Positions 1,859 to 63,332 of a DNA stretch of 64,000 nt are shown here, in pieces. How positions within the stretch are numbered: the stretch's first letter is position 1; the number at the start of each line of letters is the position of its first letter. The position numbers were made by a program, and so were the translations under genes. The stretch comes from Candidatus Kaiserbacteria bacterium RIFCSPHIGHO2_02_FULL_55_25 (GTDB taxonomy: Bacteria > Patescibacteriota > Minisyncoccia > Phycocordibacterales > UBA2100), in assembly GCA_001781335.1 (NCBI GenBank), contig MFLL01000001.1, forward strand, positions 25,626-89,625. The letters are read 5' to 3'. Under the pieces are notes generated by a model. The model had not been told where the DNA came from, searched no databases, and saw nothing but the letters and a program-made list of their open reading frames with translations.

Positions 1859-4800
1859 ATGAAAAACTACGACCATAAAGGCATAGAGAAGAAATGGCAG
1901 GATTTCTGGACCAAGAACAAGATTTACACGACCCCTGACTCCGCGCCAAAGAAAGATAATTTCTATCTCCTCGTCGAGTTCCCGTACCCCTCTGGCAACC
2001 TCCATGTCGGCCATTGGTACGCCTTTGCGGTGCCGGACATTTTGGCCCGTTATCACCGCATGCAGGGCAAAAATGTCCTCTATCCGATAGGGTTTGATGC
2101 ATTCGGACTCCCTGCGGAAAACGCCGCCATCAAGAACAAGCTCAACCCACGCAAATGGACGGAAGGGAACATCGCGTACATGAAGAAGCAGATTCAGTCG
2201 ATGGGCACATCGTTCGACTGGTCGCGCGAGGTCGTCACGTGCGACCCGTCGTACTACAAATGGACACAGTGGCTCTTCTTACAGCTCTACAAGAGAGGGC
2301 TCGTCTATCAGAAGGAGACGGCGGTCAATTGGTGCCCCAAGGATAAGACGGTGCTCGCCAATGAGCAGGTCGTCGACGGCAAGTGCGAGCGTTGTGATAC
2401 GGAAGTCGAGCAGCGGCAGATGCTCCAGTGGAATATCAAGATTACCGATTATGCCGACCGTCTCATAGAAGACCTCGAGCCGCTCAACTGGCCGGAGCAG
2501 ATAAAAGAATCGCAAAGGAATTGGATAGGCCGCTCAGAGGGTGCGGAGATTGATTTTCCGCTTGAAATGGGCAAAAAATACAAGTTCGTCTACCTGCACG
2601 GGTATAAGAGTAAGGCTGACAGACCCCGCAATCATTGGTACAGGGCAGGTTTGGAGGCGCTTGGACATGAGGTGATAATACCGGACTTGCCGAATTCAAA
2701 TAATCCAGTCGAAGAGGAGCAAGTAAAAATTGCGATTGAGGCTACGGATTACGACGAAAACACTGTTCTTATTGGGCACAGCTTGGGTGCTGTTGTTGCG
2801 ATGAAGGCGCTTCAAAAAATGAACAAAAAGATAGCACGGCTCGTGCTTATTGCGCCTACGATTGACCCTGCGTTTCCGGGCGCTGAAGAGAGACCGTTCC
2901 ACAAAACCTTTAAATGGGACATTGACTATGAATTGCTGAAGAAACTGGCGCCCAATCGGCTTCTTCTTTCTGATCTGAAAGAGCCTGAAGTCAGAATCAA
3001 TTACATTCGCCACCTCGCGCCGAAACTGGATGCGCAACTCGTTGAAACTCACGCAACTCAAGAACACTTTACGGGTGACAAAGAACCAGACGTTCTAATG
3101 TGGTTGCGACCGACAATACGCGTGTTCACGACCCGCTCCGACACGCTCTTCGGTGCAACATACCTCGTGCTTGCGCCCGAACACCAATTTATCAGGCAGT
3201 TCTACACAAGTCAGACTTCCTTGAATAAGGCAGAGGTCCAGCAATATGTCAATACTGCATTGAAGAGGAGCGACCTTGAACGCCAGACTGACCAGAAAAA
3301 TAAAACCGGGGTGAGGCTCGAAGGGGTAAGCGCAATGAATCCTGCTACGGGGGAGAAGGTACCGCTTTATGTGGCGGATTACGTACTCGGGCACTATGGC
3401 ACCGGTGCCATCATGGCCGTGCCCGCGCACGATGAACGCGACCACGAATTCGCGGAGAAGTTCGGGCTTCCCATCAGGGAAGTTGTCGAGCCCCTCGTCG
3501 TTGCCACGAGTGGCTTTGATGCTATTCATCAGGACGAACCGTTCCAGGAGCGCAACAGCATCATTGCCATCGTGAAGCACTGGTCGGAAGACAAATACAT
3601 TTGTCTCGCGTGGAAGCCGGCAGAATGGAAAGGCTTTGTCGTTGGTGGTATCGAAAAGGGTGAAGATGCCATCGCGGCCGGTGTACGCGAGATCGTCGAA
3701 GAGACCGGGTATCAAAAGCCCACGTTCATACGTCAGCTCGGCGGCACCATTCACGACAAGTTCTATCACACGATAAAAAGGGTCAACACGTTCGCTCACT
3801 TCACGCCGCTCTTGTTCCAGTTGGAAGACGGAACACATGTCGACATCGCAGATACCGAGAAAGATTTGCATGACGTACATTGGGTCGATGCCGATAAGGT
3901 CGCGAATTTTGTGAACAGTCGCGACATCAAGGTCGCTTGGGCGCGAGTGAGCGGTAAGAATATATATACAGGGGAGGGGATACTCAGCAATTCAGGAACA
4001 TTCAGCGGATTGATGACGGAAGAAGGCCGTAAGCAGATGGCCGAGAAATTCGGACGCACGAAGAAAATGTACAAGCTGCGTGATTGGATAGTCAGCCGTC
4101 AGCGGTATTGGGGCGTGCCGATTCCGATGATTCACTGCGAGAAATGCGGCATCGTACCGGTGCCCGACAAGGACTTGCCGGTGGAATTGCCGGAGGTAAA
4201 AGATTATTTGCCGGAGGGAAGCGGGAAGTCGCCGCTCGCAAAGGTCAAAAAATTTGTGGACACGGCGTGTCCTAAATGTGGGGGGAAGGCGAAACGGGAA
4301 ACTGACACGCTCGATACATTTGTAGATTCTTCGTGGTACTTCCTGCGCTATACCGACCCCAAGAATCCCAAGGCCTTTGCATCAAAAGCCAAGCAGGCAA
4401 AATGGATGCCTATCAATCTCTACAGCGGGGGAGCGGAGCACACGACGATGCACTTGCTCTACAGCCGCTTCTGGCACAAGGCGCTCTACGACATGGGGCT
4501 TGTTGCCGACGCGGAGCCATACACCCGCCGCATGAACAGAAGCATTATTCTCGGTCCCGACGGACAAAAGATGAGTAAGTCGCACGGCAACGTAATCGAC
4601 CCCGACGAGGTGGTGGCGCGACTCGGTGCCGACACGGTACGCATGTATTTGGCCTTCGTAGGGCCGTATAACGAGGTTTCCAGCTTCCCATGGAATCCCG
4701 ACGGTGTGGTGGGTGTGAGGCGTTTTCTGGAGCGCGTATGGCGCCTGCAGGAGAAAGTCGGCACAGAGGATGCCGGCGCACTCTCCTCGGCTCTGCATAA

Positions 4801-5236
4801 GGCAATAAAGAAAGTGGGCGAGGATATTGCGGCGCAAAAGTTCAACACCGCGATAAGTCAGCTCATGATTTTGCTCAATGACATGGAGAAGCGGGAATCA
4901 CTATCGCGTAACGAGTGGACAACATTTCTGCGGTTGCTCGCGCCGTTCGCGCCGCACATGGCGGAAGAATTGTGGAGTAGTGCAGGCAACAAAAAATCCA
5001 TCCACGTCCAGAAGTGGCCGCAGTACGATGAAAAATATCTTGTCGACGAAGAAGTTACGTACGGCATTCAAATCGACGGCAAAACACGCGACGAAGTTCG
5101 CGTACCGACCGATGCCGACAAAGAGACTGTTGAAAAAGCTGCACGCGACGTCGTTGCCGCCCGACTGGAAGGAAAGACTATAAAGCGGACTATTGTCGTG
5201 CCAAAGAGGTTGGTGAATTTTGTACTCGAGACATAA
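1859..5236 (+). CDS. leuS: Leucyl-tRNA synthetase (1125 aa) carrying two inserted foreign domains: an alpha/beta serine hydrolase (nt about 2558-3106) and a NUDIX hydrolase (nt about 3542-3958).
   Basis: Class I HIGH motif (HVGH), the CP1 editing start TTRSDTLFGATY, KMSKS, and the C-terminal anticodon-binding region are all present. The insert between NWIGRSEGAEIDF and IRVFTTR has the YdeN/RBBP9 pattern (xxxHGY..NHW, GHSLG nucleophile elbow). The insert after VPAHDERDHEF..GLPI has a Nudix box GGIEKGEDAIAAGVREIVEETGY. The frame is continuous with no stops. Confidence 0.93.
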   Translation: MKNYDHKGIEKKWQDFWTKNKIYTTPDSAPKKDNFYLLVEFPYPSGNLHVGHWYAFAVPDILARYHRMQGKNVLYPIGFDAFGLPAENAAIKNKLNPRKWTEGNIAYMKKQIQSMGTSFDWSREVVTCDPSYYKWTQWLFLQLYKRGLVYQKETAVNWCPKDKTVLANEQVVDGKCERCDTEVEQRQMLQWNIKITDYADRLIEDLEPLNWPEQIKESQRNWIGRSEGAEIDFPLEMGKKYKFVYLHGYKSKADRPRNHWYRAGLEALGHEVIIPDLPNSNNPVEEEQVKIAIEATDYDENTVLIGHSLGAVVAMKALQKMNKKIARLVLIAPTIDPAFPGAEERPFHKTFKWDIDYELLKKLAPNRLLLSDLKEPEVRINYIRHLAPKLDAQLVETHATQEHFTGDKEPDVLMWLRPTIRVFTTRSDTLFGATYLVLAPEHQFIRQFYTSQTSLNKAEVQQYVNTALKRSDLERQTDQKNKTGVRLEGVSAMNPATGEKVPLYVADYVLGHYGTGAIMAVPAHDERDHEFAEKFGLPIREVVEPLVVATSGFDAIHQDEPFQERNSIIAIVKHWSEDKYICLAWKPAEWKGFVVGGIEKGEDAIAAGVREIVEETGYQKPTFIRQLGGTIHDKFYHTIKRVNTFAHFTPLLFQLEDGTHVDIADTEKDLHDVHWVDADKVANFVNSRDIKVAWARVSGKNIYTGEGILSNSGTFSGLMTEEGRKQMAEKFGRTKKMYKLRDWIVSRQRYWGVPIPMIHCEKCGIVPVPDKDLPVELPEVKDYLPEGSGKSPLAKVKKFVDTACPKCGGKAKRETDTLDTFVDSSWYFLRYTDPKNPKAFASKAKQAKWMPINLYSGGAEHTTMHLLYSRFWHKALYDMGLVADAEPYTRRMNRSIILGPDGQKMSKSHGNVIDPDEVVARLGADTVRMYLAFVGPYNEVSSFPWNPDGVVGVRRFLERVWRLQEKVGTEDAGALSSALHKAIKKVGEDIAAQKFNTAISQLMILLNDMEKRESLSRNEWTTFLRLLAPFAPHMAEELWSSAGNKKSIHVQKWPQYDEKYLVDEEVTYGIQIDGKTRDEVRVPTDADKETVEKAARDVVAARLEGKTIKRTIVVPKRLVNFVLET

Positions 5237-8973: not shown

Positions 8974-8985
8974 AAACCAACCCCC

Positions 8986-9492
8986 ATGGATCTTCCTGAG
9001 GAATTACGGCCGACAGATAAAATAGAAATTCAGCTTCCGGATAACACGACAGTAAGCCTCTCCACGTCACGTCCAAAATTTCTTGTTTGGAAAGGACGCC
9101 CTGTCGATTTCGATTATGGAAAGAAACCCATACTCAATTACAGAGGGGAAGCGTGTTTTGCCGAACTCGTGATTCTCCGTATCTTGCTTGATTACGGGTG
9201 GGACGGTGTATGGGTTGAAACCTACGGCGGCACTCATTATTTACGAAGCATGCCCCATGCTTGGACTTTAAAATCGGAACATGTATCAATTCCACAAGAC
9301 AAAGAAGATTTGTTGCAAAAGATATGGAAAACAGCCAAGACAACAACGTGTTTTGATGTTCTCGCATGGCACGGTGACCAGTTGATGTTTTTTGAGGCAA
9401 AGAGGAGAGGAAAAGACAAACCTACTTCTGCTCAAATACGATTTATCGAAGGAGCTTTGGCCTGCGGAGTGCCAGCAACATCATTACTATAA
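8986..9492 (+). CDS. VRR-NUC-like PD-(D/E)xK nuclease domain protein carried on a low-GC gene.
   Basis: The motif FDVLAW...FFEAKRRG gives the D...ExK signature, and the C-terminal SAQIRFIEGALACGVP resembles the VRR-NUC tail. The nucleotide composition is visibly more AT-rich than the flanking genes. Confidence 0.5.
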   Translation: MDLPEELRPTDKIEIQLPDNTTVSLSTSRPKFLVWKGRPVDFDYGKKPILNYRGEACFAELVILRILLDYGWDGVWVETYGGTHYLRSMPHAWTLKSEHVSIPQDKEDLLQKIWKTAKTTTCFDVLAWHGDQLMFFEAKRRGKDKPTSAQIRFIEGALACGVPATSLL

Positions 9493-9542
9493 TTGTCGAA
9501 TGGACTCCGATGGATTCTGGAGGTTAAACTTCCGCGAAAACC

Positions 9543-10289
9543 TATAGAGGCGACGCCTCGATATACGTGAATTTTACAGCGGAAGGTCGGCATAATATTC
9601 GGCGGCCCCGATAAGTGTGTCCCGTAGCGCAGGGCGTTTTTCGAACATGGACATGGCATCAGCGTCGAGGATCGAGTTCTCCGGCCTCTTTGCCCCTTCG
9701 TAATCCGGCAGGCTACTGTATCGATATGTTTTGAGCTTTTGTTCCAATGATCCTATGTTCCTTACATATCCCGATTTCCATTCTCGCTCGAATAGTTCAG
9801 CAGGATTGAGATGAATGTATTGCACGACATACTGCAGGTACGCATCGTCATCGATGCGTTTGGAACGAAATGGTTTGATAAATACGTTTCCAACATGCTG
9901 TCGCTTCACATTGAAGTACATACTGAAGCTCGTTCCAAGTTTTTGCATGAATGTACTGATTCCTCCGTCGGTAATCTCTTGCAGTAGCAGATGAAAGTGG
10001 TTGGGCATGAGGCAGTACGCACCAATGGAGACCAATGGATTGCCACGCGGCAGGGAAAGAAGGCGTTCGTGCGACGGGCTGTACATAGCTCCACGGCGAA
10101 TTGTACGATTGCCATTGCAAATGTAGAGCGCCTGCAAAAAACGTTCGTAATCCTGCTCGGTCTCGAACACCACATTTTTGTCGATACTGCGGGTATAGCA
10201 GTGGTACCACTCATTGAAAGCGAATTCTTCTCTGCGATATGCCATTTGGGTATAGTATCACCCAATATATAGAGGCGTCGCCTTGATAT
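9543..10289. mobile_element. IS200/IS605-like or RAYT-like element 1, bounded by inverted GC-stem hairpins at 9543-9564 and 10268-10289.
   Basis: The hairpins tatagaggcgacgcctcgatat and tatagaggcgtcgccttgatat are mutual reverse complements and each is near-palindromic. They enclose a single HUH Y1 gene. Confidence 0.7.
9574..10245 (-). CDS. tnpA: HUH-superfamily Y1 transposase-like protein (IS200/IS605 TnpA or RAYT-like), paralog 1.
   Basis: It carries the YCLMPNHFHLLL (HuH) motif and a downstream catalytic-Tyr region YVVQYIHLNP. It is paralogous to the ORFs at 36615-37319 and 56689-57381. Confidence 0.8.
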   Translation of the reverse strand: MAYRREEFAFNEWYHCYTRSIDKNVVFETEQDYERFLQALYICNGNRTIRRGAMYSPSHERLLSLPRGNPLVSIGAYCLMPNHFHLLLQEITDGGISTFMQKLGTSFSMYFNVKRQHVGNVFIKPFRSKRIDDDAYLQYVVQYIHLNPAELFEREWKSGYVRNIGSLEQKLKTYRYSSLPDYEGAKRPENSILDADAMSMFEKRPALRDTLIGAAEYYADLPL

Positions 10290-10325
10290 GTGAGGATTTC
10301 CTGTGTTTTGATACAATGCTCAATG

Positions 10326-10769
10326 ATGAAAGTAATACTGTTGAAAGATGTGAAGGGGGTGGGGCAGAGGGGAAAGATTGTCGAGGTCAAGGACGGATAC
10401 GCGTATAATTTCCTGATTCCGCACAAAGCGGCCGAGCAGGCGACGCCCGAGAAAATTGCGGCTCACGACGCCAAAGAGAAACAGGAAGCCACTCTCCATG
10501 AACAGCAAAATACGGCACTCAAAATGGCGGTACAAAGTCTCAACGGGAAGACACTCACCGTGTTTGCACGCGCAACCGAGAAAGGCGGGCTTTTTAAGTC
10601 ATTAACGACATCCGATGTCGTTAAGGCAATTCTAGATCAGCTCAATATTCAGATACCAGAGACTACCGTCGAGCTCGAGAAGCCCATCAAGCAGACAGGC
10701 GAACACGCTATAAAGATAAAAACCGCGGATGTCGCGGCCTCTATCGTACTTTCTGTACAATCGGTTTAG
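10326..10769 (+). CDS. rplI: 50S ribosomal protein L9.
   Basis: The product begins MKVILLKDVKGVGQRGKIVEVKDGYAYNFLIP. A -10 box TACAAT at 10312-10317 sits immediately upstream. ATGs are present at 10323 and 10326. Confidence 0.9.
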   Translation: MKVILLKDVKGVGQRGKIVEVKDGYAYNFLIPHKAAEQATPEKIAAHDAKEKQEATLHEQQNTALKMAVQSLNGKTLTVFARATEKGGLFKSLTTSDVVKAILDQLNIQIPETTVELEKPIKQTGEHAIKIKTADVAASIVLSVQSV

Positions 10770-18894: not shown

Positions 18895-18934
18895 TACACA
18901 AGTCTGACTTCCGTACGGAAGTCAGACTTGTGTA
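18895..18934. repeat. Perfect 40-nt palindrome tacacaagtctgacttccgtacggaagtcagacttgtgta.
   Basis: I checked exact reverse-complement symmetry base by base. It lies in a roughly 490-bp non-coding stretch upstream of murG, and no T-run follows it. Confidence 0.9.
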
Positions 18935-23602: not shown

Positions 23603-24328
23603 TTATGTGCCGTAGCGGGGTGCCGCGAGCGAGTCGTTCTCGATGGTGATGTCTTCGAATAGCCGTTCCTGCGTCACACTCGCGGAGCCTGCGCGCACTA
23701 GCTCCAGCATGGCGAGAAAATACACAATAACCTCGTGGCGGTCTTTACTCTTCGTCAACTCGCTGAAGCGTGCCTTGAAAGCATTGGCAAGCCTTTCTTT
23801 AAGACGCACAATGACGTCCTCGAGCGCCAGCACCGGCGCTACGGCCGCCTGCATCATTGCTTCCGGCTTGGGCAAAATGTTCATCAGGCGTATCGCCGCT
23901 TCCGCAATAGTCTGAATCGTCGCTTCGGCTGGAGAGAAGACGGCCGCGCGCGCCGGAGCGCGGTACGGGAACAGGAGTGGCGCTCTCCCCCACTCTTTGC
24001 GCAAAAGCCGCGATGCCTTGCGGATGATTTGCAGGCGCGCAAGCCGGCGCTCGAGCTCCAACACTGAATCGCGCTCGTCTTCGGAAAGGTCCATGGTGGG
24101 GAGAAGCGCGCGCGACTTGATAAGCAGGAGAGTGGAGGCGACGAGTATGAATTGTGCGGTCTCCCCGAGAGGAAGTTCGGGTAATTTTTCCACATACGCG
24201 AGATATGCGTCCGCCACATCCGCAAGCGAGATGTCCGAAATGGACATTCTGCGCTCCTCAATGAGGTTCAGCAGTGTCTCGAGAGGGCCCTGAAACGTGC
24301 CCGTAGCGATGTTAAATTTGCCCGTCAT
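23603..24328 (-). CDS. scpA: Segregation and condensation protein A.
   Basis: ScpA/kleisin-like sequence placed immediately upstream of scpB. Confidence 0.85.
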   Translation of the reverse strand: MTGKFNIATGTFQGPLETLLNLIEERRMSISDISLADVADAYLAYVEKLPELPLGETAQFILVASTLLLIKSRALLPTMDLSEDERDSVLELERRLARLQIIRKASRLLRKEWGRAPLLFPYRAPARAAVFSPAEATIQTIAEAAIRLMNILPKPEAMMQAAVAPVLALEDVIVRLKERLANAFKARFSELTKSKDRHEVIVYFLAMLELVRAGSASVTQERLFEDITIENDSLAAPRYGT

Positions 24329-34622: not shown

Positions 34623-36491
34623 TCAAGAGGTAGATTCTGGCGGTTTCTGATCTCCTGCAGGCGGTGTCTGTTGCTGATTCATTGCCTGACCGATCGAGCT
34701 CATTGCCGTTGAGAGCGCTTCTGAATCCGACTTGATAGCACTCGCATCAGTGCCGCCACGCGCCGTTTTGAGTGCGTCGATTTTCTCCTGCACATTCTTC
34801 TTGATGTCTTCGCTGACCTTGTCGCCATGCTCTTTGAGGGCCTTCTCGGCGGCGTATACGAGCTGGTCGGCGGCATTTTGCGCTTCTACGAGTTCTTTCT
34901 TTTTGAGGTCGCTATCAGCGTTCGCCTCCGCATCTTTGCGCATCTTTTCGACTTCTGCGTCAGAAAGTCCCGAGGCACCCTCAATGCGAATCGATTGCTC
35001 TTTGTTGGTTGTTTTGTCCTTGGCCTTGACCGTGAGAATGCCGTTGGCGTCGATGTCGAAGGTAACTTCCACCTGCGGCATGCCGCGCGGCGCCGGCGGA
35101 ATACCGTCGAGATTGAAGCGACCGAGCGACTTGTTGTCGCCTGCCATCGGGCGCTCGCCCTGCACCACGTGGATTTCCACCGACGGCTGGTTGTCGGAAG
35201 CTGTAGAAAATGTCTGTGAACGGGATGTCGGTATGGTCGTGTTGCGGTCGATGAGTTTTGTCGCGACCCCGCCCATCGTCTCGATACCGAGCGAAAGCGG
35301 AATCACATCGAGCAGAAGCACGTCTTTCACGTCGCCCTGCATGATGCCGCCCTGCAGTGCCGCACCGAGTGCCACCACTTCGTCGGGATTGACGCTCAAG
35401 TTCGGCTTTTTGCCGAAAAATTCCTCCACGGCACGCTGAATCGCCGGCATGCGGGTCTGTCCGCCCACCAAAATGACTTCATGTATCTGGTCCTTTTTGA
35501 AGGGCGACGCTTCCATCGCGCGTTTGGTGATAGCCATAGCCCGCTCCACAAATTCGGCGGTGAGTTGCTCAAGTGTGGCACGGCTCAATTTCACCAGCAG
35601 GTGCTGTGGTCCGGCATCGGTAGATGTGATGAATGGAATGTTGATTTCGGATTCCGTGGCGGTGGAAAGCTCGATTTTCGCCTTCTCGGCCGCTTCGTCC
35701 AAGCGCTGTCTCGCGAGCGGGTCTTTGAGCACGTCCACACCGCTTTCCTTCTTGAATTCAGCCGCAATCCAATTCATTATTTTCTGGTCCAAATCTTTGC
35801 CGCCGAGGTGCGAGTCGCCGTCGGTCGAGCGCACTTCAATCACGTCATCGCCGACTTCGAGCACCGAAATATCGAAAGTGCCGCCGCCGAAATCGAACAC
35901 GACGATTTTCTCGTTCTTCTTTTTGTTGAAACCATAGGCGAGAGCGGCCGCCGTCGGCTCGTTGATGATGCGCTTCACATCGAGTCCGGCGATTTTCCCG
36001 GCATCGCGCGTCGCGGCACGTTGCGCGTCGTTGAAGTATGCCGGCACCGTGATGACCGCCTCCGTAATTTTCCCTCCAAGGCGCGCTTCCGCATCGGCTT
36101 TCAGCTTCTGCAAAATCATCGCCGAAATTTCCTCCGGACGGTACCATTGTCCCGCCTTGCCGTCGGGCAGGTCACCCATCTTCACCTCAATACCGCCGTT
36201 TGACGCTTTGCGCATCTCAAACGGGATGGCCTCGCGGTCCTTAGCGACATTCGCCTCGTCAAAGTTGTGTCCGATGAAGCGCTTTATCTGAAATACCGTG
36301 TTTTTAGGATTTGTGACACCCTGCCGCTTGGCTATCTGGCCGACGAGCCGCTCGCCCGTCTTGGAGAGCGCGACGATGGAAGGTGTGGTGCGCGCACCCT
36401 CCGAGTTCTCGAGTATCACCGGTTCGCCGCCCGAAACCACCGCCATCGCGGAATTTGTCGTGCCCAAATCTATGCCGAGTATTTTTGCCAT
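34623..36491 (-). CDS. dnaK: Chaperone DnaK (Hsp70).
   Basis: It has [18 protein letters not shown] and the remaining Hsp70 signatures. Confidence 0.95.
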
Positions 36492-36573: not shown

Positions 36574-37370
36574 GTTGTGCAAGTTAAACCTGCACAACCA
36601 TGCAATATATGTGTTCATTCGTCAATCGCTAAGATGTGCCAATCGCTTGGTGCTCTCCTACCGAGTAAGACGTCACGCGAAAACTCTTTAAACTCCCTCC
36701 CTTTCAGCAAAACCTCATCCGCGTTTTTCTGATCGAGAAGCGCTGAAAATAATCCAGACGACGTACCGATCAATCCCGCGAACTCATAGTGTCTCGCCCA
36801 CTCAAAAGCATCTTCAAATTCTTCAGTGGCTCGCGAAAGTCCGCCCGGATATTTTTCGAGAGGATTTTTAACATGAATATAGGCATTGAGATACTGCAGC
36901 TGTCTGTCGGAATCAACGGTACGGGCCTGAAATGATCCTTGAAACAAGGTACCGGCCTCAGCATACTGTGCATTGAAATAGGCGGACATACTTGTGCAAA
37001 GTCTCTGCATGAATCGACTAATTCCACCTTCTTCAATCTCCTGAAAAAGAAAGTGGAAATGATTGTCCAGCAGGCAGTACCCCAATATCGAGACATACGG
37101 CTTTGGGTGCGGCCAATGTTCTGGCCGTGCGAAACCCCGACGTACGTGTTCCGGTCCTATATCACGTTCCCAATTACGCGGAACATTCGCATCATTCAAA
37201 TAGCGTACCAGTTTCAGAAATCTCCAGCGATCATTGTCGCTCCTGACGATGTCCATCCGACGGGTGCCTCTGTTATATACATGGACGTATGAACCTACCG
37301 AGTATGGTTCTTTCCGCATTGACACAATGTCGCATACGTCATTACGTTGTGCAAGTTTAACTTTCACAAC
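36574..37370. mobile_element. IS200/IS605-like or RAYT-like element 2, inserted between grpE and dnaK and bounded by hairpins in direct orientation.
   Basis: The hairpins gttgtgcaagttaaacctgcacaac (36574-36598) and gttgtgcaagtttaactttcacaac (37346-37370) flank an HUH gene. The element ends 6 nt from the grpE stop. Confidence 0.7.
36615..37319 (-). CDS. tnpA: HUH Y1 transposase-like protein, paralog 2.
   Basis: It has YCLLDNHFHFLF and YLNAYIHVKNP. The ORF extends to a GTG at 37367 through the hairpin. By alignment to the two paralogs, the ATG at 37319 is the more likely start. Confidence 0.78.
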   Translation of the reverse strand: MRKEPYSVGSYVHVYNRGTRRMDIVRSDNDRWRFLKLVRYLNDANVPRNWERDIGPEHVRRGFARPEHWPHPKPYVSILGYCLLDNHFHFLFQEIEEGGISRFMQRLCTSMSAYFNAQYAEAGTLFQGSFQARTVDSDRQLQYLNAYIHVKNPLEKYPGGLSRATEEFEDAFEWARHYEFAGLIGTSSGLFSALLDQKNADEVLLKGREFKEFSRDVLLGRRAPSDWHILAIDE

Positions 37371-37376
37371 TAAATA

Positions 37377-37919
37377 TCATTTCTTGACGATGACCTGAGC
37401 GGGCCTAAGTATTCGTTCGCCCGCTTTGTAGCCGTACCGTAAAATCTTGATGATTTCGTGCGATTTGCCGGCTACATCTTCGACCTCCTGTACGGCATCG
37501 TGCAAGTGCGGACTGTACGTCTCGCCCACTTTGCCGTAGTGTTCGATGCCGTTGCGCTTCAGCGCGTCGATGAGTTGGTCCCGCACGCGCTCCATACCGC
37601 TTTTCCACCCGTCGCTCACCTCGGCCCACGCCTCACTTCCTGCCGCCATATCGAAGCTATCGAGCGCGGGAATGATGTCATGCACCAATTCTTCCCGCAG
37701 AAGCTCGCCGCTGCGCGCAGCTCGGGCCTCGGATTCGCGCTTGCTGTTCACCGCATCAGCCTTGGCTCTCTGCCAGCCGTCTAGGTACTCCTGCCTCTCT
37801 TTCTTTACTTTCTCCAGTTCGTCTTTGAGTTTCCTGATTTTTGCCTGTGCCGCGCCGATATCCCCGAGTTCTTCCTCGGGTTCAAAGTTCACTTCTTCGT
37901 CTTCGGCGTGTTTCTTCAT
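37377..37919 (-). CDS. grpE: Nucleotide exchange factor GrpE.
   Basis: A coiled-coil N-terminus is followed by the GrpE C-terminal domain. A minus-strand TATACT sits 6 nt upstream of the ATG. Confidence 0.9.
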   Translation of the reverse strand: MKKHAEDEEVNFEPEEELGDIGAAQAKIRKLKDELEKVKKERQEYLDGWQRAKADAVNSKRESEARAARSGELLREELVHDIIPALDSFDMAAGSEAWAEVSDGWKSGMERVRDQLIDALKRNGIEHYGKVGETYSPHLHDAVQEVEDVAGKSHEIIKILRYGYKAGERILRPAQVIVKK

Positions 37920-40289: not shown

Positions 40290-40481
40290 ATAGGATGATG
40301 GACCTGTTAGGAAATCCTACTAATTGCTAATAAATAATGACACCTGGGTTAGAAAATAAGACTGCTGTCTTTTTCCGTCTTCGCTCGGACGAAGTGTAAG
40401 CAAGCTTCCGCTTCGCTCCTCGCTAGACGTAATAAAACGCCCGCCAGTATACCTCATAATTGCGGTCATAGCAAATATTAT

Positions 40482-42030: not shown

Positions 42031-42123
42031 TATGTTGTAAATGTTGTATGTGTTGTAATCGTTTTAAATGTTTTGGCCCGTTTGCATATACAACATCTAC
42101 AACAATTTCAACATGTATAACAC
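42031..42123. repeat. AT-rich imperfect inverted repeat in the rpmJ-rpsM spacer. It has three tgttgta units on the left and three tacaaca units on the right, separated by a spacer of about 30 nt.
   Basis: The left arm tatgttgtaaatgttgtatgtgttgta pairs with the right arm tacaacatctacaacaatttcaacatgta, with a few mismatches. Confidence 0.7.
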
Positions 42124-42127
42124 TTAT

Positions 42128-50247: not shown

Positions 50248-50335
50248 CTTTACAGCCAATCAATGGGTTTTTTGTTGTGGGCCGCAAGATACTCGTTCGT
50301 TTTGCTGAATGGCTTGGAGCCGAAGAAGCCGCTAC
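50248..50335 (-). pseudogene. Diverged duplicate of the ung 3' end. It encodes ...[27 protein letters not shown] against authentic ...[27 protein letters not shown].
   Basis: The nucleotide alignment to 50887-50985 is about 85% identical and the reading frame is conserved. The fragment lies on the far side of the mazF-like gene from ung. Confidence 0.75.
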
Positions 50336-50481: not shown

Positions 50482-50868
50482 CTAGAGCATCGCTTTGGCG
50501 GCTTTCTTTCTTAATGCATCGAAAGGTGCCTTGTCGAGAAAGCCAATGCGGTTCTGTAACCGACGTGTATCAACGACTCGCAATTGCGAAAGATTTGCTC
50601 GAGCCTCCTGGTCTTCAATTAATCCAACAGGTACGCGTAGCGCGTGTTTACGCAGAGACGTCGTGAGCGGCACTATCAAGCATGCATCGGGGCCGAATCC
50701 TCGCATGATTACACACGGGCGAACGTGCCACTCGCCTTTCCCATCTTGTTCTGTGCCAATGTTTACACCAAGTCGACACCACCAGACTTCGCGCACGGTA
50801 TACAAACGCGGTTGTTCGGCATTTGTTTTCTTCTTTACCTCGTTCCACCCATCAAAATCTTTTTCCAT
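50482..50868 (-). CDS. MazF/PemK-family toxin-like protein (mRNA interferase fold). No antitoxin gene is adjacent.
   Basis: PemK/MazF pattern ...RPCVIM...ACLIVPLTT...VPV...LSQLRVVDTRRL..RIG.L. A minus-strand TACAAT sits 7 nt upstream of the ATG. Confidence 0.65.
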   Translation of the reverse strand: MEKDFDGWNEVKKKTNAEQPRLYTVREVWWCRLGVNIGTEQDGKGEWHVRPCVIMRGFGPDACLIVPLTTSLRKHALRVPVGLIEDQEARANLSQLRVVDTRRLQNRIGFLDKAPFDALRKKAAKAML

Positions 50869-50886: not shown

Positions 50887-51567
50887 CTACAACCAATCAA
50901 TCGGTTTTTTGGAGTGGGCCGATAGATAGTCGTTGGTTTTGCTGAATGGCTTTGAGCCGAAGAAGCCGTTGTATGCTGAAAACGGCGACGGATGCGGCGA
51001 TTCAATGACGAAATGCTTTGCGCGGTCGATGTGCGCGCCTTTTGCTTTGGCGTAGTTGCCCCACAGGATAAAAACGAGATTCTCGCGCTCTTCGGAGAGT
51101 TTGCGAATGACCGCATCGGTGAATTGCTCCCACCCCTGCCCCTGATGCGAACCCGCTTTGCGCGCGCTCACCGTCAGAGTCGCATTGAGAAGAAGAACTC
51201 CTTGCTTGGACCAATGTTCGAGATTACCCTTCTTCGCCAAGGCTTCGAAGGGCAAAGAACAATCTGCTGAAAGTTCTTTGAATATATTCTGAAGCGACGG
51301 CGGCAAGCGCTGGCCTTCGCTCACCGCGAAACACAGACCGTTGGCCTGATTGGGACCGTGGTACGGGTCTTGGCCAAGTATTACCACTTGGATTTTGTCG
51401 AACGGGCATAGGTCGAACGCGCGGAAAATATTCTTGGGCGGCGGGTACACAATCCCATGCAAGTATTCGCTTTTTACAAATTCCCGCAGCATCTTGAAGT
51501 AATCCTTGCCGAATTCATCCTTCAGCACCGCTTTCCACGACGCCTCTATCTGTACCTCCTTTTCCAT
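50887..51567 (-). CDS. ung: Uracil-DNA glycosylase (family 1).
   Basis: It has GQDPYHGPNQANGLCFAV and HPSPFSAYNGFFG. Confidence 0.93.
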   Translation of the reverse strand: MEKEVQIEASWKAVLKDEFGKDYFKMLREFVKSEYLHGIVYPPPKNIFRAFDLCPFDKIQVVILGQDPYHGPNQANGLCFAVSEGQRLPPSLQNIFKELSADCSLPFEALAKKGNLEHWSKQGVLLLNATLTVSARKAGSHQGQGWEQFTDAVIRKLSEERENLVFILWGNYAKAKGAHIDRAKHFVIESPHPSPFSAYNGFFGSKPFSKTNDYLSAHSKKPIDWL

Positions 51568-52695: not shown

Positions 52696-52796
52696 TCACG
52701 TATTATACCTCGTTATGTTTCGTGCCTCAGAGGTATCTGCATGAATTCGATGCGTACATTATAAGCGGCCGGTCGGCCGCTTATAATGTACCGGCT

Positions 52797-55459: not shown

Positions 55460-56590
55460 TCACTTCTCCGCAAAAGGCATCACTTTTTGTTTTTTGTCCT
55501 CTTTCGGCTTCGCCGCTGCGGGCACGGGAGCTGTGTTTTTTGCCAGTATGCCACCACCGAGACAGCGACCGCCGTCATACACAACGGCTGATTGCCCCGG
55601 AGAGATTACGTGCGGCTCGCCGAAGTCGACATACGCGCGCTTGCCTTCGCTGCGTAGCTTGATGGGAAGCGGCGTCTCCCGGTAGCGCATTTGTGCGGCA
55701 AGGCCGGTAAGGAACGACGGAGCGACTCCCGATATCCAATGCATGTCCAGCACAACGGTGCCCGCGCGCGCCGCGTCGGAACGGTTTGCCGACACTATCA
55801 CGATGTTGTTCTTGGTGTCGATACCGGTGACATAGTGCGGCGTCTTCGCCAACTGCTTCTTGGTGACGGTGAATCCGTGCCGCTGCCCGATAGTGTAGAG
55901 CGCGGCACCTTCGTGGACGCCGAGGATATGGCCCTTTTTGTCGGTCACGCGCCCCTCGGCAACAGTGATAAAGCGCTTCAGAAAATCGCGCATACTGACG
56001 TCGCCGACAAAACACAGGCCCTGACTGTCGGGCTTCTGCGCGACGGGAAGGGAGTGCGCTTTTGCATATGCGCGTACCTGTTTTTTTGTCATTGCGCCGA
56101 CGGGGAACGCGGAGCGCGAGAGGTCGCCCTGATTGAGTTGGTACAAAAAGTACGACTGGTCTTTGTCTTTGTCGACACCGCGCCACAGCTCGGGACCATG
56201 CTCGCCCTGTTTTATCTGCGCATAATGACCGGTCGCAACCACATCGGCACCCTCGGCGCGCGCCCATTTAGAGAACGCGCCGAACTTGATACTGCGATTG
56301 CACAGCACGTCGGGATTCGGTGTCTCGCCCGCGCTGTACGACGAAATCATTTTTGTGACGACCTCATTTTTGTACTCTTCGGACAAATCAATCTCTTTGA
56401 ACGGTATGCCGAGCGCTGCGGCAACGCGCATCGCATCGAGCCGGTCGCGCTGCCACGTGCACTCGATAAATTCCGGCTGCCAAATCTTTATGAAAACGCC
56501 CACAACCTTGTGCCCCTGTTCTTTGAGGAGCGCGGCACTCACCGCGCTATCCACTCCTCCCGAAAGCCCGACAAAAACCGTATGCGCCAT
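55460..56590 (-). CDS. mnmA: tRNA-specific 2-thiouridylase MnmA.
   Basis: PP-loop SGGVDSAV, catalytic cysteines, and the remaining MnmA signatures. Confidence 0.93.
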   Translation of the reverse strand: MAHTVFVGLSGGVDSAVSAALLKEQGHKVVGVFIKIWQPEFIECTWQRDRLDAMRVAAALGIPFKEIDLSEEYKNEVVTKMISSYSAGETPNPDVLCNRSIKFGAFSKWARAEGADVVATGHYAQIKQGEHGPELWRGVDKDKDQSYFLYQLNQGDLSRSAFPVGAMTKKQVRAYAKAHSLPVAQKPDSQGLCFVGDVSMRDFLKRFITVAEGRVTDKKGHILGVHEGAALYTIGQRHGFTVTKKQLAKTPHYVTGIDTKNNIVIVSANRSDAARAGTVVLDMHWISGVAPSFLTGLAAQMRYRETPLPIKLRSEGKRAYVDFGEPHVISPGQSAVVYDGGRCLGGGILAKNTAPVPAAAKPKEDKKQKVMPFAEK

Positions 56591-56644
56591 CGCACTACTA
56601 TATCAAAATTTACCAACGTACCGAGGTTTAATCTCATCATCTCG

Positions 56645-57415
56645 TGGCAAGGTAAGACCTTGCCATTTTTGTGTTATGCTTTTTGCCTATGGGCGATCGC
56701 ATCGTTTATTTCCAACCCGGAGAATGGTTCCACTGCTACAGTCGCGGTGTCGATAAAAGACGTGTATTTATATCAGCAAGCGATTATCAGCGTTTTCAGG
56801 CGCTGCTGTATGCATGTAACAATACTGATATGATTCACGTCAGTAATTACGGTCAAGGCTTTCGAAGTAAAAATCTTACTAATGTACTGAGTATTCCTCG
56901 GAGCGAATCGCTTGTTGACATCGGGGCATATAATCTGATGCCAAACCATTATCACCTTTTGTTGCGGGAACAGGTTGATGGTGGGGTGACTTCGTTCATG
57001 CGCAAAATCGGAACTGCGTACACCATGTACTTTAATATCAAGAACAAGCGCTCGGGTGCACTGTTCGAGGGTGCATTCAAAGCGAAACACGTTAAAACGG
57101 ATGCGTACTTCCGCAGAGTGTTCAATTACATTCAAGGCAATCATGCAGAACTTTCGGAGCCGCGATGGAAAGAAGGTGTCATCCAAAACGACCGGGCACT
57201 TATAGAGTCACTTCTCGCCTATCCATACTCGAGCCTTAAAGACTTCAACGGACCATCGAGACCAGAGCGCGCAATAGTTAACCGCAACTCGATACTCGAC
57301 ATCATTGACGAAATTCCGAACCCTAGAAAAATCCTTGAGGACGCTCGCATATTCGCTCGACTACACGAGGACGGCCTGTAACGCATCTACCTTATGGCAA
57401 GGTCTTACCTTGCCA
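56645..57415. mobile_element. RAYT/IS200-like element 3, flanked by inverted REP-like hairpins tggcaagg-taaga-ccttgcca (56645-56665) and tggcaagg-tctta-ccttgcca (57395-57415).
   Basis: The stems are identical and the loops are reverse complements, so the two hairpins are in inverted orientation. A third related hairpin tcatgagcaagg-aagac-ccttgctcatga lies at 57549-57577. Confidence 0.72.
56689..57381 (+). CDS. tnpA: HUH Y1 transposase-like protein, paralog 3.
   Basis: It has YNLMPNHYHLLL and VFNYIQGNHAEL. By alignment to the paralogs the start is the MGDRIVYFQ Met. Confidence 0.8.
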   Translation: MGDRIVYFQPGEWFHCYSRGVDKRRVFISASDYQRFQALLYACNNTDMIHVSNYGQGFRSKNLTNVLSIPRSESLVDIGAYNLMPNHYHLLLREQVDGGVTSFMRKIGTAYTMYFNIKNKRSGALFEGAFKAKHVKTDAYFRRVFNYIQGNHAELSEPRWKEGVIQNDRALIESLLAYPYSSLKDFNGPSRPERAIVNRNSILDIIDEIPNPRKILEDARIFARLHEDGL

Positions 57416-57487
57416 TTTACTGAGAAGCGCGGCTGACACCGCGCTGTCCACGCCACCGGAAAGTCCGACAAAAACCGTGTGTGCCAT
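57392..57487 (-). pseudogene. Duplicated mnmA 5' fragment. It encodes MAHTVFVGLSGGVDSAVSAALL, identical to authentic MnmA residues 1-22, then reads into the REP hairpin and stops.
   Basis: I compared it codon by codon with 56525-56590. There are about 10 nucleotide differences in 66 nt and all are synonymous. Confidence 0.72.
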
Positions 57488-57548
57488 TGCGTAAGGATAC
57501 TACAGTGGACAAAAGAATGAACCCCCGCGAGAGGCGAGGGTGTGTTGC

Positions 57549-57577
57549 TCATGAGCAAGGAAGACCCTTGCTCATGA
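57549..57577. repeat. Third REP-like hairpin of the element-3 family.
   Basis: The 12-bp stem tcatgagcaagg/ccttgctcatga has loop aagac, and it shares the gcaagg...ccttgc core with the element-3 terminal hairpins. Confidence 0.6.
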
Positions 57578-57588
57578 TTTTGCGGAAA

Positions 57589-57996
57589 TCAGTTGTACGC
57601 CGCCGGCCTCACCTGCCCGCCGTCTTCTACTGGCAAATGTCGCGGATTGTCGAATCTTTTCGCTTGACCCTCGCCCCATGTCCCACAATAACCGGCGGCG
57701 TCGCCACAGTAACCCGCGTGCGTGTACGGAAACTGTCCGTCACCGTCACAGCAAATGCCGTGACCAGGGAAGATCGGGCGTCGGCAACAAGCGCATAATG
57801 TGCTGAATGTATTGAGATATTCGCTCGCACACACGGCACATTTTGTCGACTCTTCGAAAGTGCACTGAGTGCCGAGCACCGCTATTTCGAATGGCGACTG
57901 CCCATTGTGCCCGCACTCGAAGCGTTTCGTGTTCGGAACAACCGGCACAGGTGCCGCGGTTCCTCTAAACAGACGGACCAATCTTTGCAAAGCCAT
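57589..57996 (-). CDS. Cysteine-rich hypothetical protein (135 aa, at least 14 Cys and several His).
   Basis: A strong SD (GGGGAGG) lies 7 nt upstream of the ATG at 57996. Cys and His residues are clustered (C.V.C, CACC, CC) and there is no signal peptide. Confidence 0.5.
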   Translation of the reverse strand: MALQRLVRLFRGTAAPVPVVPNTKRFECGHNGQSPFEIAVLGTQCTFEESTKCAVCASEYLNTFSTLCACCRRPIFPGHGICCDGDGQFPYTHAGYCGDAAGYCGTWGEGQAKRFDNPRHLPVEDGGQVRPAAYN

Positions 57997-58053
57997 GACT
58001 GCCTCCCCTTTGGCGCTGGCTACATGGTTACACGACCATGTCGGCAAAGCAAC

Positions 58054-60504: not shown

Positions 60505-60621
60505 GGCGGTATTTTAACACGAACGCCGCGCATAGCGCGGCGTTCGTACGTATCCTGTTGGTGAACGTTATTGCGGCTAGCGAGGAGCGAGGTGTGAGCA
60601 AGCTCATACCTCGTCCGAGCG

Positions 60622-60656
60622 AAGACGCAAAAAGGATTTTGTAGAAATCCTTATTT
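60622..60656 (-). terminator. Rho-independent terminator overlapping the stop of the HTH-protein gene.
   Basis: On the minus strand the stem aaggattt/aaatcctt is followed by TTTTTGC. Confidence 0.5.
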
Positions 60657-61673: not shown

Positions 61674-61860
61674 GGTATATGGGCGATTTCTATAGCCAAT
61701 TTGACTATTTGGAATGCCGTGGCTTTGTTGTAACAAATACCACGCCCCGCGTCAAGTGTGCAATTCGGGATTGCACAATCCACCCCTTCTCCACAGGCAA
61801 GTCCCACATCGCGGGATTTTGCCGTGAATCCAAAAAATCTCACCGTGCTAGAATCGCCAG

Positions 61861-63255
61861 ATGATTGCCCAGCCGACACGCGTCCCCCCGCAAGATATTG
61901 AAATGGAACGTGCGCTTCTCGGTGCGCTCCTGCTCTCCCCCGGTGCAATGTACGAAATCGTAGATGTCGTCGGCATTGACTCTTTTTATGCGGGCAAACA
62001 CCGCACCATATTCGATGCGATGCTCAGCCTGCATACCAAGGGCGAACCCATCGACGTTGTTACCGTTTCGGGCAAACTCAAAGAGCGTAAAGAACTGACC
62101 GCAATCGGAGGCGCTGCATATCTCTCCGAGGTCGCGGGCGCCGCCGCCTCTCCCGGCTCGGCGCGCCACTACGCACAGAGTGTCCAGACAAAATTCGTAC
62201 TCCGTAGTCTCATAGAGGCGGCGGCGAAAATCGGAGAACTCGGTTTCGAGGAAGACCGCGACATCGAGCAGGTGCTCGACGATGCGCAGTCCGCCGTTTT
62301 CCAAGTCACCAACTCACCGATGCTTCAGAGTTTCAGCGCCATCAAAGAGGAGCTCGCTGGCGCGTGGGAACGGCTCGAATTACTGCAAAAGCACAAAGGC
62401 GCACTCCGCGGAGTACCGACCGGCTTCCCCCAGCTCGACAACATGCTCTCCGGTCTGCAAAAATCCGACCTCATTATCCTCGCGGCGCGTCCCTCGATGG
62501 GTAAGACCGCGCTCGCTCTCGACATCGCCCGTCAAACTGCGGTCAAACACAAAACCGCTGTCGGTATTTTCTCGCTCGAAATGGCGTCTGAACAACTTGT
62601 CGACCGTATGCTTGCGGCGCAGGCGGGTGTGGATTCATGGCGCCTGCGTACCGGCAAAATCTCCAAAGACGACGAGTACGACCGTCTGCAGGAGGGCATC
62701 GCGCAATTGAGCGAGGCGCCTATCTATATCGACGACAAACCGGGAACCACCGTGCTCGCCATGCGCTCCGTCGCGCGGCGTCTCAAAATGGAAAAGGACC
62801 TCGGACTCCTCATTGTGGACTACCTCCAACTCATCACGCCGGGCACGAGCCGTGGCAACGACAACCTCGTTCAGCAAATCACGGAGATATCGCGCTCGCT
62901 CAAATCGATGGCGCGCGAGCTCAAGGTACCGGTCCTCGCACTCTCACAGCTCTCCCGTGCCGTGGAACAGCGCCGCGGCCGGCCTCGCCTGTCCGACCTG
63001 CGCGATTCCGGCTCCATCGAGCAGGACGCCGACGTCGTGATGTTTATCCATCGCGAAGACAAAATGAACGCCGACACCGGCGCCGAGAAGACCAACGTCG
63101 CCGAGATTCTTATCGAAAAACACCGCAACGGCCCCATCGGCAAAGTTGACCTGCTTTTCGATGAGTCGAAGACAACCTTCCGCTCCGTGGACAAGAGCGA
63201 CTTCGGCGATATCATGACAGAGGCGCAGGTGGGGGGCGGAGAAACGCCGTTCTAA
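61861..63255 (+). CDS. dnaB: Replicative DNA helicase DnaB.
   Basis: An N-terminal DnaB domain, Walker A GARPSMGKT, and the H1-H4 motifs. An extended -10 box TGCTAGAAT ends 6 nt before the ATG. Confidence 0.93.
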   Translation: MIAQPTRVPPQDIEMERALLGALLLSPGAMYEIVDVVGIDSFYAGKHRTIFDAMLSLHTKGEPIDVVTVSGKLKERKELTAIGGAAYLSEVAGAAASPGSARHYAQSVQTKFVLRSLIEAAAKIGELGFEEDRDIEQVLDDAQSAVFQVTNSPMLQSFSAIKEELAGAWERLELLQKHKGALRGVPTGFPQLDNMLSGLQKSDLIILAARPSMGKTALALDIARQTAVKHKTAVGIFSLEMASEQLVDRMLAAQAGVDSWRLRTGKISKDDEYDRLQEGIAQLSEAPIYIDDKPGTTVLAMRSVARRLKMEKDLGLLIVDYLQLITPGTSRGNDNLVQQITEISRSLKSMARELKVPVLALSQLSRAVEQRRGRPRLSDLRDSGSIEQDADVVMFIHREDKMNADTGAEKTNVAEILIEKHRNGPIGKVDLLFDESKTTFRSVDKSDFGDIMTEAQVGGGETPF

Positions 63256-63332
63256 GTGTTATACATGTTGCATTTGTTATATTTGACGGCAATTTGAACA
63301 GCTAGAACATTTATATCATTTTCAACAATTCT

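Follow-up and report, generated by a model that had tools for sequence, protein, structure and literature searches.

A palindrome-bounded Y1 HUH gene upstream of rplI in a Kaiserbacteria genome as a candidate TIRtron-like mobile element

Immediately upstream of rplI in Candidatus Kaiserbacteria bacterium RIFCSPHIGHO2_02_FULL_55_25, a gene for a predicted HUH enzyme of the Y1 type lies between two short palindromes. Is this unit, called E1 here, a mobile element, a resident module of its host, or a gene with ordinary regulatory DNA on either side? It belongs to a stretch of 64,000 nucleotides (contig MFLL01000001.1 of assembly GCA_001781335.1, positions 25,626 to 89,625), hereafter the window, which holds two further elements of the same kind, E2 and E3; other loci are designated by L numbers. 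An earlier note, made from the sequence alone, had described E1 as an IS200/RAYT-like transposase element with its own hairpins. Our analysis suggests that E1 is probably a compact, autonomous and low-activity Y1 mobile element resembling those known as TIRtrons, and that its enzyme would be a class-2 (RAYT-like) single-strand DNA nuclease/ligase.

The enzyme and the palindromes at its gene ends

The E1 protein contains both YCLMPNHFHLLL and YIHLNP, and, among 64 aligned homologs, H83, H85, Y143 and N147 never vary. The Pfam Y1_Tnp profile matches only residues 72-145 of E1, with 28.9 bits against a gathering cut-off of 23, and is passed by all three paralogs of the window (28.9, 36.2 and 29.9 bits). 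As for the NCBIfam equivalog REP_Tyr_transpos, E1 scores 42.3 bits, under its cut-off of 80. No Pfam domain other than Y1_Tnp was found in E1, a C-terminal DnaA_C/helix-turn-helix (HTH) domain being undetected, and the tail forms a short helical bundle in the AlphaFold model. This model, built on the 64-homolog alignment (predicted local distance difference test, pLDDT, 92; predicted template modelling score, pTM, 0.89), is closest in a Foldseek search of the PDB to 4ER8, the E. coli TnpA-REP protein bound to a hairpin of repetitive extragenic palindromic (REP) DNA (E 1.6e-6, TM score 0.70 on the target). The TnpA proteins of ISDra2 and IS608 come next (2XM3, 2A6O, 2VJV; E 1e-4 to 1e-3). A PDB search with the sequence profile of the family returned no match at E<=1, and no TnpA; it is the fold search, not the sequence profile, that ties the family to solved TnpA structures. 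By its motifs and predicted fold, E1 is a member of the HUH Y1 (TnpA-Y1) superfamily, as the earlier note had recognised; this superfamily is marked by an HUH motif for metal binding and by one catalytic Tyr on a C-terminal helix, followed four residues on by a polar third ligand. In the published classification of Y1 enzymes, its motifs NHFH, YIHLNP and YSS agree with class 2 and, read by eye on the alignment, most closely with the row of subclass 2.1.

The paralogs of the window, located by tblastn, are divergent. E3 is 42% and E2 34-36% identical to E1, close to the 35-45% that had been estimated by eye, and the three are mutually 34-42% identical. Two weak tblastn matches (56186-56311 and 23982-24164) were dismissed as lying inside other genes. 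Beyond the window, a word-indexed search yielded more than 1,700 homologs, and a profile search 1,144 clusters at 50% identity (E<=1e-30). Among GTDB species representatives, 479 loci were found, all in Patescibacteria (e.g. Kaiserbacteria, Adlerbacteria, Paceibacterota). Full-text literature searches joining Patescibacteria with terms for such systems retrieved no description of this family.

We analysed 83 loci, namely 78 of 80 GTDB loci (the other two were excluded, as the gene start was too near the locus end), L001, L002 and the three of the window. In 72 of the 83, a palindrome with the core A-G-G-Y-G-W-C-R-C-C-T is centred 13-52 nt ahead of the ATG, and 55 of the 83 carry it at both gene ends, the second copy lying within ~55 nt past the stop codon. 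A blind flank-to-flank comparison yields the same repeat pairs. The earlier expectation that the hairpins be conserved in other copies is thereby borne out, and the palindromes travel with the gene into unrelated contexts. Pairing at arm positions 6-12, on which our search pattern placed no constraint, is found in 67-92% of sequences, compared with 26-49% once they are shuffled; each position shows two to four pair types and little sequence conservation, i.e. the arms covary. Between the two ends of one element, 5.8 of 7 arm positions are alike, as opposed to 2.5 of 7 between different elements. The centre base is A or T, combined at random at the two ends and random with respect to gene orientation, and no position outside the palindrome exceeds 0.5 bit. 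From the pairing, the end-to-end matching and the lack of outside conservation, it follows that the site of the family is a perfect palindrome, 25-27 nt long, whose core is shared across the family and whose covarying arms are specific to each element. Classes of core variants follow the protein tree only loosely (51.4% vs 48.7% identity), which is no evidence for co-evolution beyond shared ancestry. As for the orientation of neighbouring genes, 40 divergent and 30 tandem arrangements show no departure from random.

How does E1 compare with this template? Its 22-mers occur nowhere else in the window, and each is an imperfect palindrome by itself (TATAGAGGCG-A/T-CGCCTYGATAT). Since the site is palindromic, the pair can be read equally as a direct repeat with two mismatches (centre A/T, C->T) or as an inverted one with three or four. 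The 22-nt hairpins reported to flank E1 are present, but the claim that the right copy is the exact reverse complement of the left one does not hold. Likewise, the proposal of a different hairpin for each paralog holds for the outer arms and fails for the core, the hairpins of E1, E2 and E3 being variants on the one template with variable outer arms. The innermost pair is an A.G mismatch in E3 and T-A in E2, as in L084. Folded alone as single-stranded DNA, the E1 copies reach -4.5 and -3.0 kcal/mol (z -2.1 and -1.6), and 9 and 20 of 200 shuffles, respectively, fold at least as well; the E2 and E3 palindromes fold clearly more strongly (z -3 to -6.6). The significance of the E1 palindromes lies in their placement at both gene ends and their match to the family consensus, not in their stability. 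E1 is a canonical family member whose outer arms have decayed.

The palindromes are close to expression signals. According to a purpose-built motif count, a TAnnnT box ends 4-9 nt (mode 6) ahead of the ATG in 74 of the 83 loci (control 6%), in its extended TGn form in 49 (control 0.5%), and a Shine-Dalgarno-like sequence is found in 4 only; none precedes E1. A generic -35/-10 promoter scan gave nothing relevant; these promoters are of the extended -10 type only. In E1, the promoter sits between the 5' palindrome and the start codon, and we infer a leaderless mRNA. With its centre ~31 nt ahead of the leaderless start in the family and 33 nt in E1, the 5' palindrome spans the -35 region. The 3' palindrome of E1 also scores as terminator-like on the minus strand, and the right palindrome ends 22 nt from the -10 box of rplI, as the ~20 nt of the earlier note had indicated.

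Could the palindromes then be ordinary regulatory DNA, that is an operator covering the -35 region plus a terminator acting in both directions, rather than nuclease substrates? The location of the 5' copy and the terminator-like 3' copy would fit, and the symmetry of the site, whose centre base is random, would be compatible with a dimeric protein that binds double-stranded DNA. The gene nevertheless requires the same sequence at both ends, and the variable outer arms stay self-complementary to 12-13 bp, for which a dimer operator has no need. The palindromes also form the exact limits of the unit that moves (see below), and the nearest structural relatives of the enzyme bind single-stranded DNA hairpins. 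We therefore regard this explanation as very unlikely. Regulatory functions might instead be secondary to those of a mobile element: the 5' palindrome over its own -35 region may permit autoregulation, and the 3' palindrome could double as a terminator.

Movement of the elements and recombination around them

Comparisons between loci show that the elements change places. The element of L002, whose protein is 83% identical to that of E1 and whose palindromes match, lies between a methyltransferase gene and gatB, next to secA. Among 56 pairs with proteins at least 70% identical, about half have unrelated flanks on both sides. In one such pair (L027/L038), the two copies are 84% identical and reside in a single metagenome-assembled genome (MAG). 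For pairs in unrelated contexts, nucleotide similarity extends no further than ~4 nt from the outer edge of either palindrome. No target duplication was detected, flanking direct repeats averaging 2.11 nt as compared with 2.08 nt in mismatched controls (n=55). These observations show that the unit moves as a whole, probably palindrome-to-palindrome, without target duplication.

It is tempting to model the mechanism on TnpA-REP and IS200/IS605 TnpA. When the DNA becomes single-stranded, each palindrome would form a hairpin with 12-13 bp and G-W-C at its tip, and the enzyme would read the conserved tip and the inner stem. It would then cut at the hairpin feet, or within a few nt of them, through a 5'-phosphotyrosine intermediate, and rejoining of the strands would excise the unit and insert it palindrome-to-palindrome without target duplication.

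The E1 site itself was surveyed in relatives. Syntenic orthologs are found in L001 (86% identical) and L017 (91%), and L038 carries a 53%-identical paralog at the rplI site. The neighbours of E1 are less conserved (RplI 48%, S41 peptidase ~70%), and E1 also has a lower synonymous substitution rate (dS). With a ratio of non-synonymous to synonymous rates (dN/dS) of 0.07-0.10, purifying selection has kept the E1 protein functional. Relatives were sampled through a nearby RNase T-like gene, which gave 45 loci covering the site, and none of the 45 has a HUH gene between the S41 gene and rplI; presence or absence across strains was one of the checks that had been proposed for E1. The gap between the two genes is 10-89 nt in 33 of the 45, and in the other 12 it contains 583-1287 nt of alternative cargo (HicAB, a deaminase, a 349-aa open reading frame (ORF)). 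It follows from this survey that the interval from the S41 peptidase gene to rplI (8974-10325) is a cargo hot spot, and that E1 is an accessory insertion there. An empty site at nucleotide resolution was sought in a 90%-identical relative (L028/L108), whose intergenic regions could not be aligned, and only presence or absence was scored. The window sequence recurs in Rifle aquifer assemblies, with E1 in every contig that covers the site. As the paralogs are divergent and near-identical copies were not found, there is no sign of recent bursts of transposition.

Recombination has also left traces around the elements. A 70-nt direct repeat of the 5' end of mnmA flanks E3: the functional copy (56524-56593) and the orphan copy (57421-57490, minus strand) are 83% identical. 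Over the first 22 codons they specify one and the same peptide, and the nine codons that differ do so synonymously, AGT/TCA for Ser among them. Both copies have therefore evolved as coding sequence in diverged lineages, and the duplication reads as the signature of recombination with a diverged functional allele. The same pattern is found in L040, where the last 35 nt of groEL are duplicated around the element. No HUH gene is involved in a third case, in which a second copy of the final 81 nt of ung (50888-50968) lies at 50251-50331 with 89% identity, the two bracketing an ORF for a PemK/MazF toxin (50482..50868, minus strand). What this orphan copy encodes is still a Ung C-terminus with conservative changes, and it therefore comes from a diverged allele.

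Other variation involves the palindromes. A strain variant, L099, is 99.8% identical to the window until 4 nt beyond the 3' palindrome of E3; past this breakpoint, which falls exactly at the palindrome edge, it has ~590 unrelated nt and no orphan mnmA fragment in comparison with window 57419-58050, after which identity resumes at 87%. Extra copies of an element's own palindrome are found at distances of 130-3400 nt, enclosing other DNA, and one-and-a-half palindromes stand beside some elements. In 507 kb of flanks, ~14 genuine solo palindromes lie within 4 kb of HUH genes. As for HUH-free DNA of relatives (476 kb), it gave 4 weak palindrome hits where shuffling predicts 2.2, that is noise. Variability had been suspected to be restricted to the side of the 3' palindrome, an idea that was not upheld, since most solo palindromes lie on the 5' side. 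These facts show that recombination is frequent in the vicinity of the elements, and the nuclease may cause a part of it.

Several of our observations weigh against a mobile element. Given the random centre base, the sequence offers no cue to the strand that is processed; no conserved guide or cleavage motif was found outside the palindrome, and the isolated E1 hairpins are thermodynamically weak. E1 is fixed in all contigs of its population, 530 kb of flanks contained no extra copies and near-identical ones were not found, and relatives have unrelated cargo such as HicAB or a deaminase at the E1 site. The duplicated host-gene ends flanking two elements indicate that homologous or illegitimate recombination also moves these regions, and such recombination could account for part of the apparent mobility.

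Much of this would agree with a domesticated or immobile REPtron or TIRtron, i.e. a resident host module serving, for instance, in fork-hairpin processing or local regulation, whose contexts shift by transformation and recombination in cargo hot spots. In addition to the fixation of E1 and its synteny in L001 and L017, this reading draws on purifying selection, a conservation above that of neighbouring housekeeping genes, divergent paralogs without identical copies and the alternative cargo in 12 of the 45 relatives. The gene-end duplications at E3 and L040 also favour it, the synonymous-only differences within 22 codons at E3 pointing to recombination with diverged alleles, as does the like duplication around a toxin gene without a HUH gene. 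Against it, similarity ends at the palindrome edges on both sides and not at the limits of larger shared blocks, and one MAG holds two 84%-identical copies in different contexts. Solo palindromes are concentrated close to HUH genes, at distances of a few kb, and missing elsewhere, which suggests local activity of the enzyme, and the catalytic residues are invariant. On balance, we hold immobility to be rather unlikely, and a low-activity mobile element remains our preferred explanation.

One may also envisage the palindrome/HUH module as going beyond a selfish gene and forming a small recombination platform, at which nicks would seed the capture, exchange or loss of adjacent DNA, in the manner of a minimal cassette system with a single-strand nuclease in place of an integrase. 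This possibility would jointly explain the nearby extra palindromes, the one-and-a-half palindromes, the L099 breakpoint, the duplicated gene ends and the hypervariable cargo sites. We nevertheless consider it speculative and quite unlikely.

Coordinates and further features of the window

In the window, each of the E1, E2 and E3 palindromes occurs solely as a flanking pair, two solo hairpins aside (Table 1).

Table 1. Features of E1, E2 and E3 and solo hairpins (window positions; aa, amino acids)
Feature	Position	Strand	Description
E1 unit	9543-10289		747 bp; order: palindrome, extended -10 promoter, leaderless Y1 HUH gene (inferred), palindrome
E1 gene	9574..10245	-	223-aa predicted Y1 HUH nuclease; H83/H85, Tyr143, Asn147 (YIHLNP), YSS tail motif
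E1 palindrome, 3' side of HUH gene	9543..9564		TATAGAGGCG-A-CGCCTCGATAT; 9 nt past stop codon
E1 palindrome, 5' side of HUH gene	10268..10289		TATAGAGGCG-T-CGCCTTGATAT; centre 33 nt ahead of ATG
E1 own promoter (predicted)	10246..10260	-	extended -10 box TGATACTAT at 10252-10260, 6 nt ahead of ATG
rplI extended -10 box and start	10309..10328	+	TGATACAAT at 10309-10317, ATG 10326; host gene just outside E1
E2 gene	36615..37325	-	236-aa Y1 HUH paralog, inserted between grpE (37377..37919) and dnaK (34623..36491)
E2 palindrome, 3' side	36574..36598		GTTGTGCAAGTT-A-AACCTGCACAAC
E2 palindrome, 5' side	37346..37370
E3 gene	56689..57381	+	230-aa Y1 HUH paralog
E3 palindrome, 5' side	56645..56665		TGGCAAGGT-AAG-ACCTTGCCA
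E3 palindrome, 3' side	57395..57415		exact reverse complement of 5' copy
Solo hairpin, E3 type	57549..57577		core GCAAGG-N5-CCTTGC
Solo hairpin, E2 type	61757..61777		21 nt, TGTGCAAT-TCGGG-ATTGCACA

Some observations concern the elements or their surroundings. In a relative at 90% nucleotide identity, a 980-nt insertion (L028 6664-7643) takes the place of the E2-type solo hairpin and holds an ORF and a GCAAGG-N5-CCTTGC hairpin. L100 (GCA_001781195.1) has a 77-nt tandem duplication within the HUH gene of E3 (window 56926-57002), which cuts the called product to 147 aa; this could reflect either a genuinely disrupted allele or an artefact of the assembly. A 168-aa ORF (8986..9492) that adjoins E1 has no Pfam match; it shares 87% identity with its counterpart in L001 and 95% with that in L125, and is missing from L017. 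A 29-nt inverted repeat (42098-42126 and 63253-63281, 90% identical) has one copy just upstream of recR, in the intergenic region where the close relative L028 has a HUH element. Genes of the window, such as rplI, mnmA and the HUH genes, often start 6-7 nt past an extended -10 box without a Shine-Dalgarno sequence, which suggests that leaderless mRNAs are widespread among them.

Other features are separate from the elements. A 40-nt perfect palindrome, TACACAAGTCTGACTTCCGTACGGAAGTCAGACTTGTGTA, at 18895-18934, with a partial copy 15.7 kb away (3201-3234), is unrelated to the HUH palindromes. A near-perfect palindrome of 38 nt, GTACATTATAAGCGGCCGGTCGGCCGCTTATAATGTAC, is intergenic (52754-52791), and a 67-nt intergenic sequence with a short hairpin, CTTCGCTCGGACGAAG, occurs twice in opposite orientation (40369-40435 and 60568-60634, 82% identical) and has no Rfam match. 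Rfam gave no match anywhere in the window, hence no tRNA. An ORF of 1125 aa (1859-5236) for an aminoacyl-tRNA synthetase combines Pfam matches to tRNA-synt_1, a serine hydrolase/alpha-beta hydrolase and NUDIX, an unusual fusion.

Relation to known systems and meaning for the hosts

The closest described concept is the TIRtron, or TIRYT, of Di Nocera et al. 2013 (PMC3733652), some of whose terminal inverted repeats (TIRs) are 'partly or wholly self-complementary'. It corresponds, according to Quentin et al. 2018 (PMC6006769), to TnpA-Y1 subclass 2.1, i.e. Group 1 of the RAYTs of Bertels. In TIRtrons as in the E1 family, a RAYT-like Y1 gene stands between terminal inverted repeats and not between GTAG-tagged REPs, and a genome contains several distinct copies with repeats particular to each. 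For subclass 2.1, the table of PMC6006769 lists NH[YF]H, FQ or W[EQ], Y[IV]HLNP, an SS tail, ~238 aa and ~49% identity between same-genome copies; NH[YF]H, Y[IV]HLNP and the SS tail recur in E1, and E2 has FQ, so that the placement in subclass 2.1 is proposed on motifs read by eye. Differences are also apparent. TIRtron repeats contain GGGGWSAS, whereas the core of the E1 family is AGGYG-W-CRCCT, and the C-terminal DnaA_C/HTH domain of these enzymes was not detected by Pfam in E1. A perfect palindrome pair is the rule in the E1 family, while Quentin et al. (PMC6006769) report no REP-like structures beside subclass 2.1 genes. Finally, the hosts of the E1 family are Patescibacteria, mentioned in neither PMC3733652 nor PMC6006769.

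REPtrons, represented by E. coli 4ER8 and by Corneloup et al. 2021 (PMC8266576), provide the best structural match and share the class-2 YxxxNP signature. Their gene is bracketed by at least two hairpin-forming palindromes, which in one described REP group are perfect as well, and low copy number, divergent paralogs and strong purifying selection are further common traits. However, the conserved 5' GT[AG]G foot of REPs is absent from E1 and from the family profile, and no dispersed high-copy population of palindromes was found for the E1 family, either in the window or in the HUH-free DNA of relatives. E1 also falls under the REP_Tyr_transpos cut-off, and gene and palindromes of the E1 family move as a whole, in contrast to RAYTs, which are considered immobile and domesticated.

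A classical IS200/IS605 insertion sequence, as exemplified by IS608 and ISDra2, would share with E1 the Y1 HUH fold and Pfam Y1_Tnp match, small size, hairpin ends, the absence of target duplication and presumably the single-strand 'peel and paste' logic. According to PMC6006769, the signature of subclass 1.1 (IS200/IS605) is Y-x3-Q with DH[VI]H, in contrast to NHFH and YIHLNP in E1, and IS200-type genes average 99.4% identity between copies within a genome. The left-end and right-end hairpins of IS200/IS605 are subterminal, imperfect and non-identical, whereas the E1 family has the same terminal, perfect palindrome at both ends. The guide tetranucleotides and fixed target of these insertion sequences were not found in the family, nor were tnpB or a near-identical multicopy set, and the family profile retrieves no TnpA from the PDB at E<=1. 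Membership in this group is thus extremely unlikely. The classical IS200/IS605 or RAYT/REP affiliation of the earlier note is not sustained, given YxxxNP instead of YxxxQ and the lack of tnpB, of a GTAG foot and of dispersed REPs; its broader view of a Y1 HUH enzyme with cognate flanking palindromes is upheld by the invariant motifs, the Y1_Tnp match and the proximity of the fold to 4ER8.

Class-2 (RAYT-like) Y1 nucleases are generally treated as domesticated enzymes without the features of insertion sequences, and how REP systems arose from IS200-like transposons is an open question. If E1 is the mobile element that we propose, the family provides a case in which a class-2 enzyme continues to travel, as a minimal unit with its own hairpins for boundaries, and this in bacteria whose genomes measure ~1 Mb and in which each gene is costly. 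Because the family is large and its conserved site is sharply defined, with covarying arms, it would offer a clean system in which to study how hairpins are read and cleavage sites chosen. It may also serve as a marker for accessory DNA in Patescibacteria genomes.

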